Positions 5,449 to 61,053 of a stretch of DNA of 64,000 nucleotides are shown piece after piece. Every line of letters begins with the position of its first letter. The stretch's first letter is position 1. This stretch comes from Octopus sinensis (taxonomy: Eukaryota): the NCBI RefSeq assembly GCF_006345805.1, contig NC_043023.1:3534001-3598000 (forward strand), read 5' to 3'. Both the position numbers and the translations under genes were made by a program. Below the pieces are notes generated by a model that saw nothing but the letters and a program-made list of their open reading frames with translations, ran no database searches and was not told the origin of the DNA.

Positions 5449-5675
5449 TATCTGTAAATGTAATATGTGACAATTATTTGGTAGCCATGATAAAACTCTG
5501 AGTTTCGGAGGCTGAGGTGGAATTCCATGCTGCCATTTCCACCTTGGCATCCGAAACTCAGAGTTTTATCATGGCTACCGAATATTTGTCACATATTACA
5601 TTTACAGATAAATTCCTCTATTTACATAATATATAGGTCTCTTTCTTTCTTCTGTTGTCTTACCATTTTTATCAA
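5449..5675. mobile_element. Fold-back element in (TA)n (arms about 70 bp, plus tail); same family as 50899-51345
   Basis: Inverted arms span 5449-5610. The arm start and 3' tail are shared with the 50.9 kb copy. It holds only the GAAACTCAGAGTT half of the hammerhead. Confidence 0.75.
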
Positions 5676-6038
5676 TATATATATATGTGAAGGCGCATGG
5701 CTCAGTGGTTAGAGCGTCGACCTTACGATCGTGAGGTTGTGAGCTCGAATCCTGGACCGGGCTGCATGTTGTGTTCTTGAGCAAGACAGTTTATTTCACG
5801 TTGCTCCAGTTCACTCAGCTGTAGAAATGAGTTGCGACATCACTGGTGCCAAACTGTATCGACCTTTGTCTTTCCCTTGGATAACACTGGTGGCGTGGAG
5901 AGGGGAGGCTGGTATGCATGGGCGACTGCTGGTCTTCCATAAAACAACCTTGCCCGGACTTGTGTCTAGGAGCAATCCCATGGTCTGTGTCATGACCGAA
6001 GGGGGTCTCAGATATATATATATATATATATATATATA

Positions 6039-6215
6039 GGGAGAGTTTACGAAAAAAACAAAAGATGAAGACAGGTGGTGTAGATAACAAACAGATGTAT
6101 TAGTATAATGCTCAGGAATAGAAAAAGTCTTTTATGTTTCGAGCCTACGCTCTTCTACAGAAAGGGAAACAGAAAAAAACAAGGAGAGAAAAAAAATGTG
6201 TGTAGTGGCTACCGA
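6039..6215 (-). mobile_element. PLE-like terminal fragment with hammerhead-like motif CTGTAGA-A-GAG..CTC-GAAAC; related copies at 11495-11575 and 29418-29610
   Basis: Three copies share sequence, and each abuts a (TA)n or (TG)n tract. Confidence 0.5.
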
Positions 6216-7025
6216 TATGTCTGTGTCAACCGATGTTGGTATGACCTCTGCATCCCCTTCCAGTTGGGCATTCCCAATCTTGCAGGTTCATGGGTGCTTG
6301 TGCCATGTAAATGCACCCATGGAAGTGCCGTGCGTAAATGCATGCAGCATACACTGTAAAGTGGTAGGTGTTAGGAAAGGCATCCAGCCATAGAAACCAT
6401 GTCAAAACAGGCATGGGGTCTGGATTGCTCTTCACCTGGCCAGCTCTGGCCAATCGTCCAACCCATGACAGCATGGAAAACTGATGTTAAATGGTGATGA
6501 TAATGATGATGATGATGATGATATAGTTTTTTTTGTTTTTTTTACATCAAGTTATATATATATATGTGGGGGGGGGTGTAGAAAAAGCAATTTAATATTA
6601 AACTGAAAGACTACCCAATACATTTTAGAGGAGTATGTGTTTATTAAACTTTTGCAAGTTAAAGGTTGATAGTAACTTCAAAGTTTTTTCACTTGTTCTC
6701 AGTTTGATGACGGCAAGCACACTGACACTTCAAAATTCACTGCCAACATTTTCCTGGTAATATTCAATGCAGTTTCATATATATATATATATAGACACAC
6801 ATATACATACATACATACACACATACACAGGTTAATATTAAGCAGTGAGAATGAGTTCTCAACACTCCATTGGTTGATTGATTGATTTTTTATTTGTAGG
6901 TTAACAAGGCGACCATAGGTTTCATGTCGAGAGAAATCTTCTCAATTATCGATTACATGGAAAGTTAGTATTTATCTCCATCTTGGATTCATCCTGGTTA
7001 ACACCCACAACTAAAGTGTATATAT

Positions 7026-56754: not shown

Positions 56755-58493
56755 ATATATATATATATATATATATATATAATATATATATATATATATT
56801 ACATATATTATATATATAATATACATATATACATACACATACATACATACATATATACTTAACAAATACGAACTAATATATAGTTCTAAATTTGACAGAA
56901 ATGGGGAGGCTGATTTGCTGGTGTACAGATAAGGCAGTCATGTAAACAAAGGGATGTAGGTTTGATTCCCCTGTGGATAGGAAAGCCTTCTTTTTTCTGT
57001 CAAGGACTTATATGCCCCCTTTATTAGGCCATTTTCCTTAGTCATTACACGGTTATTGCCATAAGCTTTAAGCTTATATAAAAAATATATATATAAAATA
57101 CACACATATAATCAATACTGAAGGAAAAGAAAATGGAGGGAAAATGGATGTATGAATAATTTATTTGTATGTTATGAAATGTCTGAAATTTCTTTTAAAA
57201 AACATAATAGGCGCAGGAGTGGCTGTGTGGTAAGTAGCTTGCTTACGAACCACATGGTTCCGGGTTCAGTCCTACTGCGTGGCACCTTGGGCAAGTGTCT
57301 TCTAATATGGCCTCAGGCCGACCAGTGCCTTGTGAGTGAATTTGGTAGATGGAAACTGAAAGAAGCCCGTCGTATATATGTATATATATGTATATATGTA
57401 TGTGTGTGTGTGTGTCTGCGTTCGTCCCCCCCAACATCATTTGACAACTGATGCTGGTGTCTTTATGTCCCCATAACTTAGCGGTTCGGCAAAGGAGACC
57501 GATAGAATAAGTACTAGGCTTACAAAAAATAAGTCCCGGGGTCGATTTGCTCGACTAAAAGGCGGTGCTCCAGCATGGCCGCAGTCAAATGACTGAAACA
57601 AGTAAAAGAGTAAAGAGTACAAATAAATTGAGTAGAAGTTGTAAACCTCAAAAAAATAAATTTAAAGAACCTTTTTGTGATACCTTTCTTAGCATTTAAC
57701 CAAATGCTTAAAATTTCTGATCAGCTAGGGGACTGTACTGAAACATATATGTAGGTTCTTTTATCTTATCTTTTGCAAGCTTTACAATTTGTAACCAATT
57801 TATTTGTTGTACTGTTTTTTAAAAGAAATTTCTCATATTTTATAACATACAAATAAATTATTCTTCATCCATTTTTTCTCTATTTTCTTTTCCTTCCATA
57901 TTGATAATATATATAATTACAATAATCCCTAACATACACCAGTGACCTTTGCATTATATGATAGAGATTAACCAGTGGAATATCTGGGATTATATAATCC
58001 ATAATGAAGATATAACTACCTCAAATTACTATATATATATATATATATATATATATAAATATAGTTAATTTGAACATGCCAGCCAACCTCCCTTCATTGG
58101 ACTAACTCTGTTTGCGAAGACCGTTGGGGCAAGTGAAATCAGAATCGAAATTGAACCAATCCTATGACTGGCCCCAGCGGTTGCAAGGCCACTGGACTGA
58201 CTCCTGTGCAAGGTGGCAAGTGAAGAAACAACCATTTCGACCCTGTGCTTGAGGAGATCCATTGAGTCAAGTACACCAAAATCAAGATCAATGGAAACTG
58301 CAGTTGTGATCCCTGTGCCAGTATCGCGTAAAAAGCACCATCTGAACGTGGCCAATGCCAGCACCACCTAGAATGGCTTCCGTGCCGGTGGCATGTAAAA
58401 TGCACCAATCCGATCAGGCCTACACAAAGATGCAGAAAGTGTGCGGAGAGGGGTGTAAGAGCCAAGTGTACGAAAGGAAAGAAAGAAAAAGGA

Positions 58494-58526
58494 TTTAACA
58501 TTTTGAGCGGAGCTCTTCTTCAGAAA
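58494..58526 (-). ncRNA. Decayed minimal PLE-type hammerhead
   Basis: TTT-CTGAAGA-A-GAGC-TCC-GCTC-AAAATGTT-AAA. Confidence 0.45.
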
Positions 58527-61019
58527 CATAGAAAAGTCCAAGGAAGGGACGACGGAGAACGAAATTCGCCAACGATACACACACGGTCACATATTGAAAA
58601 ATTAACTATATATAGTTCATCATCATCATCATTTAACATCCGTTCTCCATGCTAGCATGGGTTGGACAGTTTGACCGGGAATCTGGGAAGCCAGAAGGCT
58701 GCACCAGGCTCCAATCTTGATCTAACACCAACCACTCCGAGGCTGGCAAATGGCCACGATCGGATGGTGCTTTTTATGTGCCACCGGCACGGGGGCCAGG
58801 CGAGGCTGGCAACAGCCACAATCGGATGGTGCCTTTCATGTGTCACCGGCACAGAGGCCGGTCGGGGTGGCGCTGGCAACAGCCACGTTCGGATGGTTCT
58901 CTTACGTGCCATCGGCACTGGTATCACAACTGCAATTTCCATTGATGTTGATCGATTTCGATTTTCACTTGCCTCAACAGGTCTTCACAAGTAGAGTTTT
59001 GTGTCCCAAGAAGGAAAGGTATGCATAAGTGGACTGGCTACGTCCCAGGTAGAGACCACGGGTGATGGTCTCACTTGTCCTGCCAGGTCTTCCCACTGTG
59101 CATGTGTGTGTGTGTGTGTGTTTGTCCCCCATCACCGCTTGACACCTGGTGTTGGTTTGTTTACATTCCCGTAACTTAGCCATTCGGCAAAAGAACAAGT
59201 AAGAAATAAGTACTAAGGGGGGGGAGGTCGATTTGTTTGACTAAAAAAAACCACTTGAAGGTGGTGCTCCAGCATGGCCACAGTCAACTGACTAAAACGA
59301 ATAAAAGAATAAAAGAATAAGAATGTATAGAAATATCAGTATATGATATATATAAAACTAGCCTAAATGAAAATATGCGAAGAATATGAGAAAACTAAAA
59401 GAACAAAACTAGGTTTCATGCTCGATTTGTTTATAAAATTTTACCATTGTTGAGTTGCTATGGTGACAGAGGAACGTGGGTAGACTGTGGGTCACCCACC
59501 ACACACAGGAGGCAGAGGGGAAGAAAAAGAAGAAAATGATGTTAAAAGACTGCAGAGATGGTCATGATGATGATATGGTGGTGATGATGATTATGGTGAT
59601 GATGATGATGATAACAGCACTTGGATTGAGTTGTGATGATGGTAGTGGTGGTGATGGCGACAGTGAAAAGAATCAATGATTGTGATGAAGATGGTGAAGA
59701 TGATGATGATGATGGTGATGGTGATGATGATGATGATGGTGATGATGATGGTGATAATGTTCATGATAGTGATGGTGATGGTACCACTGATGATGAGGAT
59801 GATGATGATGGTGATGATGATGATGGTGATGACGATGATGATGACGATAATGGTGATGATGATGAGGATGGTGACAGGTCAATGTCGATAATAGTCCAGA
59901 TGGTCAGAAACGGAACAGACATGCAAGCACATGTAAATCGTTAATTAATTGGTTAAATAGATAAATAAATAAATAAACAAATTAATTCGTTAATTAATTT
60001 AAAACATTAGCAACATTTAAAATCATTATTATTATTATTATTATTATTATTGGCATTGAAACAGAAGAAAAGACAAAGACAGAACAAAGATGAAACAAAA
60101 GAGAAGAAAGAAGGGGAGACGAGAAAAGAAAGAAAAGAAGGAAGGAAGAGGAAAAAGAAAAGGAGCATCATCATCATCATTTAGCTCCCACTTTTCCATG
60201 TTTGTATGGACCAGGTGGAGTTTACTGAGACTGGGTGGGAAGCACTCCGTCGGTTACGACGACGAGGGTTCCGGTTGATCCGAATCAACGGAACAGCCTG
60301 CTCGTGAAATTAACGTGTAAGTGGCTGAGCATTCCACAGACACGTGTACCCGTAACGTAGTTCTCGGGGATATTCAGCGTGACACAGAGAGTGACAAGGC
60401 CGGCCCTTTGAAATACAGGTACACAGAAACAAAAGAAAGAGTGAGAGAAAGCTGTGGTGAAAGAGTACAGCAGGATCACCACCATCCCCTGCCGGAGCCT
60501 CGTGGAGCTTTAGGTGTTTTCGCTCAATAACACTCACAACGCCTGGTCTGGGAATCAAACCGCGATCCTACGACCGCAAGTCCGCTGCCCTAACCACTGG
60601 GCCATGCGCCTCCACTCTGAGACTGGGTGCCCTTCCTGTCACCAACCCTTAACGGTTTTTAGCCCAATATTTATCATGCAAGTGGCTGAGTACTCCACAG
60701 GCACATGTACTCTGAATGTGGTCTTAAGGGGGTTCAGTGTGACACAGAATGTGGCAATGCTGTCCCCTTTTGAAATTCAGGTACAACTGATTTTTGCCAG
60801 CAGCTGAGAGGACTGGAGCAATGTGGAATAAAGTGTCTTGCTCAAGGACATAACATGCTGCTGCCAGGGATTGAACTCATGATCTTGGTTCTGAGCCAAA
60901 TACCCAAATCCCTAAGAGACTCTTTGAGCGGAACAAAAATAAAAGAAACACAAAAATGAGGTAAAAAAACCCCAAAGAAACACTGTATATTAAATTAGGG
61001 ATCAGGAAAATCCATTGTT

Positions 61020-61053
61020 TTTTATGTTTTGAGCATAAGCTCCTCGTCAGAAA
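61020..61053 (-). ncRNA. Decayed minimal PLE-type hammerhead
   Basis: TTT-CTGACGA-G-GAGC-TTAT-GCTC-AAAACATA-AAAA. Confidence 0.42.

Follow-up and report, generated by a model that had tools for sequence, protein, structure and literature searches.

What kind of element produces the many short inverted repeats that lie beside (TA)n tracts in the Octopus sinensis genome? Here, we studied a 64,000-nt stretch (the window; NC_043023.1, positions 3,534,001 to 3,598,000, assembly GCF_006345805.1), in which an initial annotation made from the letters alone had pointed out 13 such fold-backs. We found that these hairpins are very probably 3′-end insertions of Penelope-like elements (PLEs), each made of a truncated pseudo-long terminal repeat (pLTR) with a tail, placed head-to-head with an inverted copy that lacks the tail.

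At each of the 13 starts, self-BLAST detected a local inverted repeat (E 2e-15 to 4e-138), and all-vs-all BLAST sorted the 13 fold-backs into 11 families with no cross-match between families at E<=1e-3, so the suggestion of mutually unrelated families holds. The search joined just 5449 with 50899 and 22072 with 37901, plus a second copy of 7381 at 14109/14444; within each of the two pairs the inverted arm begins at the same base and the tail is common to both copies, as the annotation had also noticed. A (TA)n tract adjoins every one of the 13 elements at one or both ends, against a chance level of 7.1% of window positions, and the arms differ by substitutions in every copy but 14212. Tails had been put at 50-75 nt for most copies; they are shorter at 15407 and 45089 (~31 nt) and at 18296 (46 nt). 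The fold-backs, with the start by which each is named in brackets where it differs, are as follows.

5449..5675, plus strand: family A (Hydra-type PLE) fold-back, arms 5449-5613, tail ~62 nt; of its hammerhead, the 3′ half alone is kept.
7026..7250, plus strand: family J fold-back, arms 7026-7172; copy truncated 3′ of the tRNA-like part.
7285..7525, minus strand: family E fold-back (7381), arms ~7381-7525; the family hammerhead lies upstream of the copy's truncation.
11590..11850, plus strand: family I fold-back (11596); the family hammerhead (TTGATGA/TTGACAA core) lies upstream of the copy.
14109..14519, plus strand: second family E copy, in pieces 14109-14200 and 14444-14519, its internal (TA)n split by family C; not among the 13 first listed.
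14212..14408, plus strand: family C (Hydra-type) fold-back, arms 100% identical, centre at a palindromic hexamer, tail ~70 nt.
15375..15716, minus strand: family F (Neptune-type) fold-back (15407), arms 15406-15719, tail ~31 nt; no hammerhead found in the family.
16152..16501, minus strand: family G fold-back (16232), arms 16232-16503, tail ~80 nt; the family hammerhead (AUA site) lies upstream of the copy.
18248..18458, minus strand: family D (Hydra-type) fold-back (18296), arms 18294-18462, tail 46 nt (a 20-nt deletion against the usual 67).
22070..22371, plus strand: family B fold-back (22072) in a PTDSS intron, arms 22068-22316, tail 55 nt; the family ribozyme lies 5′ of where this copy begins.
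37899..38112, plus strand: second family B fold-back (37901), intronic.
45048..45510, minus strand: family H (Neptune-type) fold-back (45089), intronic, arms 45079-45510, tail ~31 nt.
50899..51345, plus strand: second family A fold-back, intronic, arms 50895-51280, tail ~62 nt.
56560..56754, minus strand: family K fold-back (56632), intronic, arms 56632-56754, tail ~72 nt; hammerhead partly kept.

The long arm of the family E fold-back at 7285..7525 runs through an internal (TA)n into the tail at 7285-7363. In the second family E copy, the young family C element has inserted in this internal (TA)n, which shows that PLE ends provide targets for each other.

We then followed each family through the 2.72 Gb genome, where all 11 are dispersed repeats. 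First-look candidates, which are not copy numbers, amounted to 1697 for A, 2781 for B, 757 for C, 1131 for D, 1250 for H, 2231 for F, 196 for G, 1596 for I, 1601 for J, 1231 for K and 964 for E. Each family search scored 40 candidates; 30 loci, the window's own copy included, were cut out for each of eight families (28 measured for A, after one duplicate and one unscored locus were dropped), while J, K and E are covered by short loci only (n=22, 6 and 6). The direct arm stops at one fixed base, commonly at (TA)n: a tract was present at the 3′ end in 28/28 loci of A, 30/30 of C, 26/30 of F, 24/30 of D, 21/30 of H, 19/30 of G and 17/30 of I, against the same 7.1% background. The proposed targeting of (TA)n is supported in seven of the eight families measured; family B had the tract in 9/30 loci. 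Fold-backs within 700 bp were found in 12/28 loci of A, 19/30 of B, 27/30 each of C and D, 7/30 of H, 6/30 of F, 18/30 of G and 17/30 of I. One-tailed fold-backs with an inverted, 5′-truncated copy occurred in all eight measured families, and in the short loci of J, K and E. A second fixed site sets where the inverted arm begins, and the tail is the stretch between this site and the end of the direct arm (62 nt in A, 55 in B, 70 in C and 67 in D). Within families the tail length is fixed: 61-62 nt in 9/12 fold-backs of A, 66-72 in 22/27 of C, 65-68 in 18/27 of D and 54-56 in 10/19 of B. Tails are mostly 17-43 nt in F and H and mostly 54-90 nt in A, B, C, D, G and I. Around the whole fold-back, a target-site duplication was seen in 7/7 family B cases outside TA tracts and in 0/7 controls; these duplications are roughly 10-14 nt long (13-17 as scored, chance extension included) and variable in sequence. 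Copies of family C are 99-100% identical, indicating a very young family.

The parents of the hairpins were reached through a GIY-YIG frame found in one family A locus. Used as a genome query, it gave 21,381 first-look candidates and 150 scored matches, and of 29 loci retrieved with only the protein as query, 25 had the family A end downstream of the GIY-YIG domain, in sense. Three family A loci carry an uninterrupted 717-codon open frame (709 aa from Met), two (L064 and L065) have an upstream direct pLTR and thus the order pLTR-ORF-pLTR (ORF, open reading frame), and L069, L070, L072 and L073 are fold-backs of kilobase size, in which both arms hold pieces of the ORF and one bears the tail. 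The unit is ~2.6 kb long with a C-terminal endonuclease (EN), and the ORF contains MRWK, SDKT, CSCRNKELC, CGLC and CPH, that is, all the Hydra-clade motifs listed in PMC8557442. The protein aligns with an ORF of RVT_1/GIY-YIG type (hhalign 96.3%, E 1.9e-9; 76-sequence profile, Pfam-typed partner), a homolog search with the Hydra-type ORF collected 1150 relatives, and the predicted structure (pLDDT 92) has a telomerase reverse transcriptase (RT) as its best Foldseek match. For family H, a Neptune-type RT+EN lies upstream in sense in 4/30 loci. The ORF of L069 has a CX2-5CxxC linker upstream of a C-terminal GIY-YIG, with relatives 72-89% identical upstream of family H ends, and L223 of family F has the same arrangement. 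An endonuclease stands upstream in sense in one locus each of D (L135) and F (L223), and in family C a Hydra-type endonuclease occupies the long inverted arm of one 3.4-kb fold-back; the C and D endonucleases carry a CxCx5C linker. All linked endonucleases are C-terminal and followed by a stop and a 3′ untranslated region, and none of them has the N-terminal EN of the Naiad clade. Tblastn with the endonuclease detected no PLE ORF inside the window. Assigned by motifs and, for family A, a by-eye match to the published alignment, five families are linked at the sequence level to GIY-YIG-bearing parents: A, C and D to the Hydra type, F and H to the Neptune type. Extension of the families, which the initial annotation had proposed as a check, returned GIY-YIG-bearing parents for five families and no parent for the other six; its PLE origin with inverted, tail-less pLTRs is borne out by these parents and by the one-tailed geometry. 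The description of an ORF-less population was mostly wrong, since five of the 11 families are truncated ends of ORF-bearing PLEs. Beside the Hydra-type fold-backs, Neptune-type PLE ORFs were observed at L069:6364-8352 and L070:91-1572, with (TA)n tracts in common.

Next to the geometry, the arms were proposed to hold hammerhead ribozymes. A strict descriptor gave a single match in the window; it passed over most motifs, since extra nucleotides flank stem II in them. With the relaxed type I descriptor used for the window and family scans, six matches appeared in the window, against 0.05 in 20 shuffles, and five of the six fell in 4 of the 13 elements (14212 twice, 18296, 45089 and 50899). These predicted motifs are listed below.

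14271..14321, plus strand: predicted type I hammerhead of the family C copy; mirror copy at 14224-14274 on the minus strand.
18386..18423, plus strand: predicted type I hammerhead of the family D copy, with a palindromic stem III.
45406..45453, plus strand: predicted type I hammerhead of the family H copy, with a U3-A8 core variant.
50938..50998, minus strand: predicted type I hammerhead in the short arm of 50899, sense to the host pre-mRNA.

On 987 kb of loci, the relaxed descriptor gave 264 matches, compared with 0-3 in three shuffles. They form 34 sequence clusters (13 of them singletons), and the stems, unrelated from cluster to cluster yet complementary, surround a core that is constant. 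Stem III is palindromic in 27 of the 34; PLE minimal hammerheads have been described in the same terms (PMC4209133). Type I motifs occur in 9 of the 11 families, namely A, B, C, D, E, H, I and K by scan and G by pattern, and were not found in F or J. The claim of hammerheads in the arms thus stands at the family level, but only 4 of the 13 window copies have kept a complete motif. Likewise, the stem covariation that the annotation had asked for is present across families but weak within them: in family B, stem II (n=12) reads GGA/TCC in 8 copies, a compensated GGG/CCC in 1 and a one-sided change in 3, so the case for hammerheads rests on the cross-family comparison. Rfam showed no hammerhead among the 150 of 253 window matches listed, with low-complexity miRNA only, and none at gathering score in 12 loci. 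A complete type I motif without an inverted arm was also observed at 15789-15867, just after a (TA)n, and is probably another truncated PLE end. By eye, stems I and III of the family D hammerhead (L135:1505-1545) are the same as those printed for the coral Hydra-2_Amil in Craig 2021.

The picture of hairpins that seed ribozymes was not supported. Nine of the 13 copies have no complete motif, and in the four that do, the predicted probability of the ribozyme stems was 0.0 when the whole element was folded, compared with 0.0-0.96 for the isolated motif. With head-to-head arms, transcription of either strand reaches the antisense copy before the sense one; in a transcribed stub this antisense arm would bury the ribozyme in double-stranded RNA (dsRNA). 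The inserted stubs are most likely inert, and the predicted hammerheads belong to the parent RNA.

Two families are non-coding tandem units. Family B forms a head-to-tail unit with a period of 354-358 bp (L086 and L096), no ORF and one type I hammerhead per unit, in keeping with the retrozyme-like nature that the initial annotation had suggested. Family J is a head-to-tail unit with a period of 306 bp (L286), also without an ORF, in which a tRNA-like segment is followed by a T5 run. Rfam scored this segment as tRNA in L287 only (36.6 bits, cut-off 29) and below cut-off in 20 further J loci, and ARAGORN called a tRNA in 0/6 loci, indicating that the segment is degenerate. No usable hammerhead core was present on either strand of the whole J unit, and it failed as a non-LTR (long terminal repeat) retrozyme. 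The family J fold-backs show PLE-type geometry, J works like a non-autonomous PLE passenger, and both B and J are likely carried in trans. In two contigs (L098:1-1660, L079, L080), a gag-like ORF with a CCHC knuckle and a poly(A) signal was observed fused to the family B unit, at the same base each time, 32 nt upstream of the hammerhead core; the RT possibly jumped from one template onto another element's RNA.

How could such an insertion arise? Both arms probably stem from a single round of target-primed reverse transcription. An autonomous Hydra- or Neptune-type element would supply the RT/GIY-YIG protein, which would nick both strands of a (TA)n or AT-rich target ~10-14 nt apart. From each nick, cDNA synthesis would be primed at one of two set positions inside the RNA, and the spacing of these positions would be the tail. 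Both cDNAs would end early; in Hydra-type families the stop would very often lie immediately 5′ of the hammerhead. Their ends would be joined, often through a short palindrome, and repaired to an asymmetric inverted repeat. Nicking of both strands and two internal RT start sites that set the tail have been reported in vitro, where ribozyme cleavage was unneeded (PMC11167929); the joining of two primed cDNAs at their ends is a step that we infer.

A less probable but substantial alternative keeps the PLE origin and makes the inverted arm by self-priming, in which one cDNA (or antisense template) loops back at a palindrome and is extended along its own sequence. The fold centres at palindromic hexamers favour it, as do the clustered centres of D and A and those of C, 21/27 of which lie at one position, 136 nt from the 3′ end. 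Self-priming has, moreover, been argued for rotifer Penelope elements from their palindromic junctions (PMC3846280). However, it sits poorly with the many junctions that have unequal arms and spacers, and with the fixed outer end of the inverted arm, which is offset by the tail and matches the two RT start sites seen in vitro on both strands (PMC11167929). That the units propagate themselves as whole fold-backs, like hairpin retrozymes or miniature inverted-repeat transposable elements (MITEs), would suit the near-identity of the C copies and their mostly single fold centre, but we consider it improbable: the same family also has other centres and the 3.4-kb endonuclease-domain fold-back, the outer end of its inverted arm shifts by a few bases among copies, and the centres vary widely in B, G and I. 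Inverted repeats with TA flanks likewise recall remnants of DNA transposons (foldback or MITE) with terminal inverted repeats and TA duplications. This reading is highly unlikely, and for A, B, C, D, F and H the evidence already speaks against it, because the repeats are not terminal, the tail lies outside on one side only, the duplications are ~10-14 nt and variable in sequence, the linked ORFs are RT/GIY-YIG and the hammerheads lie within the arms. As for errors of assembly, (TA)n tracts and hairpins are prone to them, and the junctions are known from the assembly alone. Yet the same arm start and tail recur on many contigs, duplications surround whole units, and all window copies but 14212 have substituted arms, so that an artefact has hardly any probability.

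Several observations weigh against the origin from PLE 3′ ends by two priming events that we prefer. Arkhipova 2013 prefers self-priming to two priming events, and the present data do not separate them. Pfam was blank on the Hydra-type ORF itself, and PDB phmmer and PDB hmmsearch with this ORF were blank or non-significant. The GIY-YIG links of C, D and F are a single locus each, and B, E, G, I, J and K could not be tied to any parent ORF, the search for E and K covering 6 short loci each. Tails of 54-90 nt are longer than the published 30-40 nt. A clear target-site duplication was mostly absent in 22 fold-backs of H, G, I and D outside TA tracts, which gave 2 matches of 11 nt and 3 of 7-8 nt, largely in simple repeats.

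The truncated PLE ends also share a hot spot of truncation just 5′ of the hammerhead core, which we mapped for A, C, D and G. Within -26 to -2 of the core lie 21/28 direct-arm and 11/13 inverted-arm 5′ ends of family A; in C, 25/29 direct-arm ends are at or beside the palindrome, in D 26/29 ends are at -17 to -9, and in G 8/29 are at -33 to -22. Since the queries left out shorter copies but admitted longer ones, the rarity of the latter is genuine, although this choice sharpens the peak. The hot spot is compatible with run-off at a transcript 5′ end, with RT stalling and with palindrome-driven self-priming. A TATA sequence ~29 nt upstream of it occurs in 3/4 C loci, 2/5 A loci and the B tandem units and is absent in younger A, G, K, E and H, which makes TATA a weak lead with mixed evidence as the cause; Penelope of D. 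virilis is described as having none (PMC2377424). A splice-acceptor-like YAG at the hammerhead edge was not above chance. We tentatively propose, as an idea with rather long odds, that the stubs are run-off cDNAs of a "strong-stop" kind: RT would start internally, 130-175 nt away from the 5′ end of a transcript that begins shortly before the hammerhead, two such cDNAs would anneal at the terminal palindrome, and the same machinery would carry family J.

The insertions were said to lie in introns. The window holds a phosphatidylserine synthase gene.

20869..63330, minus strand: host gene (phosphatidylserine synthase, PTDSS), stop at 20869, exon edges approximate.

Its coding exons lie near 63290, 37550, 35480, 33390, 32590 and 25800, plus the last exon with the stop, so that the gene reaches at least to 63290; they were recognized by Pfam PSS matches on 3 of 65 window frames scanned and by a peptide motif search. 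Only 5 of the 13 fold-backs (22072, 37901, 45089, 50899 and 56632) are intronic, and the remaining 8 lie 2-15 kb past the PTDSS stop. If transcribed, all 13 elements are predicted to form long duplexes of -67 to -256 kcal/mol.

Other repeats of the window are recorded here. The inverted pairs 53814-54198 and 61240-62025 were rejected as members because they match its abundant, dispersed repeat resembling a short interspersed nuclear element (SINE), and the local inverted repeat at 19125-19236 resembles a SINE piece. Two more local inverted repeats, 32166-32291 and 22543-22679, occur once each in the window and do not have TA at both ends. Another TA-associated repeat is present in four pieces (6040-6215, 11491-11571, 29436-29598 and 61017-61082) and looks by eye like a small hammerhead cluster seen 10 times in flanking loci. 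Tandem arrays are a short-period satellite at 8400-10600, a ~235-bp repeat at 22783-24715 with an inverted copy at 44452-45003, and an array of ~120 bp period at 27683-28672 derived from the abundant SINE-like repeat. An assembly gap of 100 N lies at 54765-54864, within the PTDSS gene span.

To place the density of the window, we used a flank sample of 800-bp pieces at least 700 bp from query matches, which is biased toward PLE neighbourhoods. It contained 34 hammerhead matches in 364.8 kb (456 pieces) and, in its first 300 pieces (240 kb), 31 fold-backs, of which 14 have TA at the arm end, 3 match the SINE-like repeat and 3 are further copies of the query family. With 13 fold-backs in 64 kb, the window is ~3-4x denser than the TA-ended background. 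Extrapolated from this biased sample, the genome total would be of the order of 10^5 fold-backs, and 34 hammerheads in 365 kb would correspond to ~2.5x10^5 per genome, a figure obtained with descriptors that differ from those behind the published counts of 126,247 in axolotl and ~5,000 in mussel (PMC7229834).

Set against known systems, the fold-backs are truncated PLE insertions of an ordinary kind, from new families of Hydra and Neptune type, together with the two non-coding tandem units; the insertion shape is known and is unusually plentiful and varied in this octopus genome. The idea that nothing of the kind had been described in cephalopods was mistaken: Craig 2021 (PMC8557442) and its supplement report the inverted truncated copy, the one-sided tail, the (TA)n preference, Hydra-1_Obim of Octopus bimaculoides with its hammerhead, and three octopus Naiads. 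In addition, 31 recently active PLE families are reported for O. vulgaris (PMC13282606), where hammerheads go unmentioned in the parts of the main text available. Family A resembles the Hydra clade and Hydra-1_Obim in its single ORF, size below 3 kb, C-terminal GIY-YIG, the motifs RWK, DKT, CxCx5C, CxxC and CxH, a type I hammerhead with palindromic stem III, and (TA)n; by eye, its protein has long stretches in common with that of Hydra-1_Obim. It is nevertheless distinct, with another hammerhead and with tandem pLTRs, which are noted as absent for Hydra-1_Obim, and four short motifs from the present families were not found in the accessible part of the Craig 2021 supplement. Compared with the clade as published, at least 3 Hydra-type families share one window here and their tails are 62-70 nt long. 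Families H and F agree with the Neptune clade in the C-terminal GIY-YIG, the CX2-5CxxC linker, tails of ~20-40 nt and the inverted pLTR, but F differs in having no hammerhead found, while the U3-A8 core variant of H has been reported for Cercyon elements (PMC4209133).

Penelope and the Adineta vaga PLEs (PMC3846280; Craig 2021 Fig. 2) share the head-to-head truncated copy or inverted pLTR, the one-sided tail and the palindromic junctions, with duplications of 8-10 bp, and in Schistosoma dual minimal hammerheads lie on opposite strands 100-700 bp apart (PMC4209133). In contrast to these cases, the very short form is common here, and the 5′ ends pile up no more than ~25 nt upstream of the hammerhead core in A, C and D. 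Family B is similar to the non-LTR retrozymes (PMC7229834; bioRxiv 10.64898/2026.07.22.740005) in its ~355-bp head-to-tail unit with a type I hammerhead, and both B (354-358 bp) and J (306 bp) fall within their repeat length of 170-400 nt. However, B consists mostly of dispersed truncated fold-backs with PLE tails and duplications, and J joins the tandem layout to a tRNA-like segment and has no hammerhead. A MITE or foldback DNA transposon differs from all of this, given the one-sided tail, the variable 10-14-nt duplications and the RT parents. For the density of hairpins, the hot spot and a tRNA-bearing PLE passenger, we found no published account in a search that left most subscription papers outside.

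For annotation, such stubs could easily be filed as MITEs, terminal inverted repeat elements or unclassified SINEs. The young family C together with the intact Hydra-type ORFs forms a natural set for mapping RT starts, stops and junctions. A role of the intronic hairpins in RNA editing is a possibility. If the stubs are indeed run-off cDNAs, this would account for ~10^5 hairpins and for a hammerhead population among the densest known. The tRNA-like segment of family J would then stand at the place of the ribozyme, making J a SINE-like passenger of a Penelope element that is possibly cut to monomers by RNase P/Z, and the intronic stubs would be a large source of near-perfect dsRNA for cephalopod ADARs.

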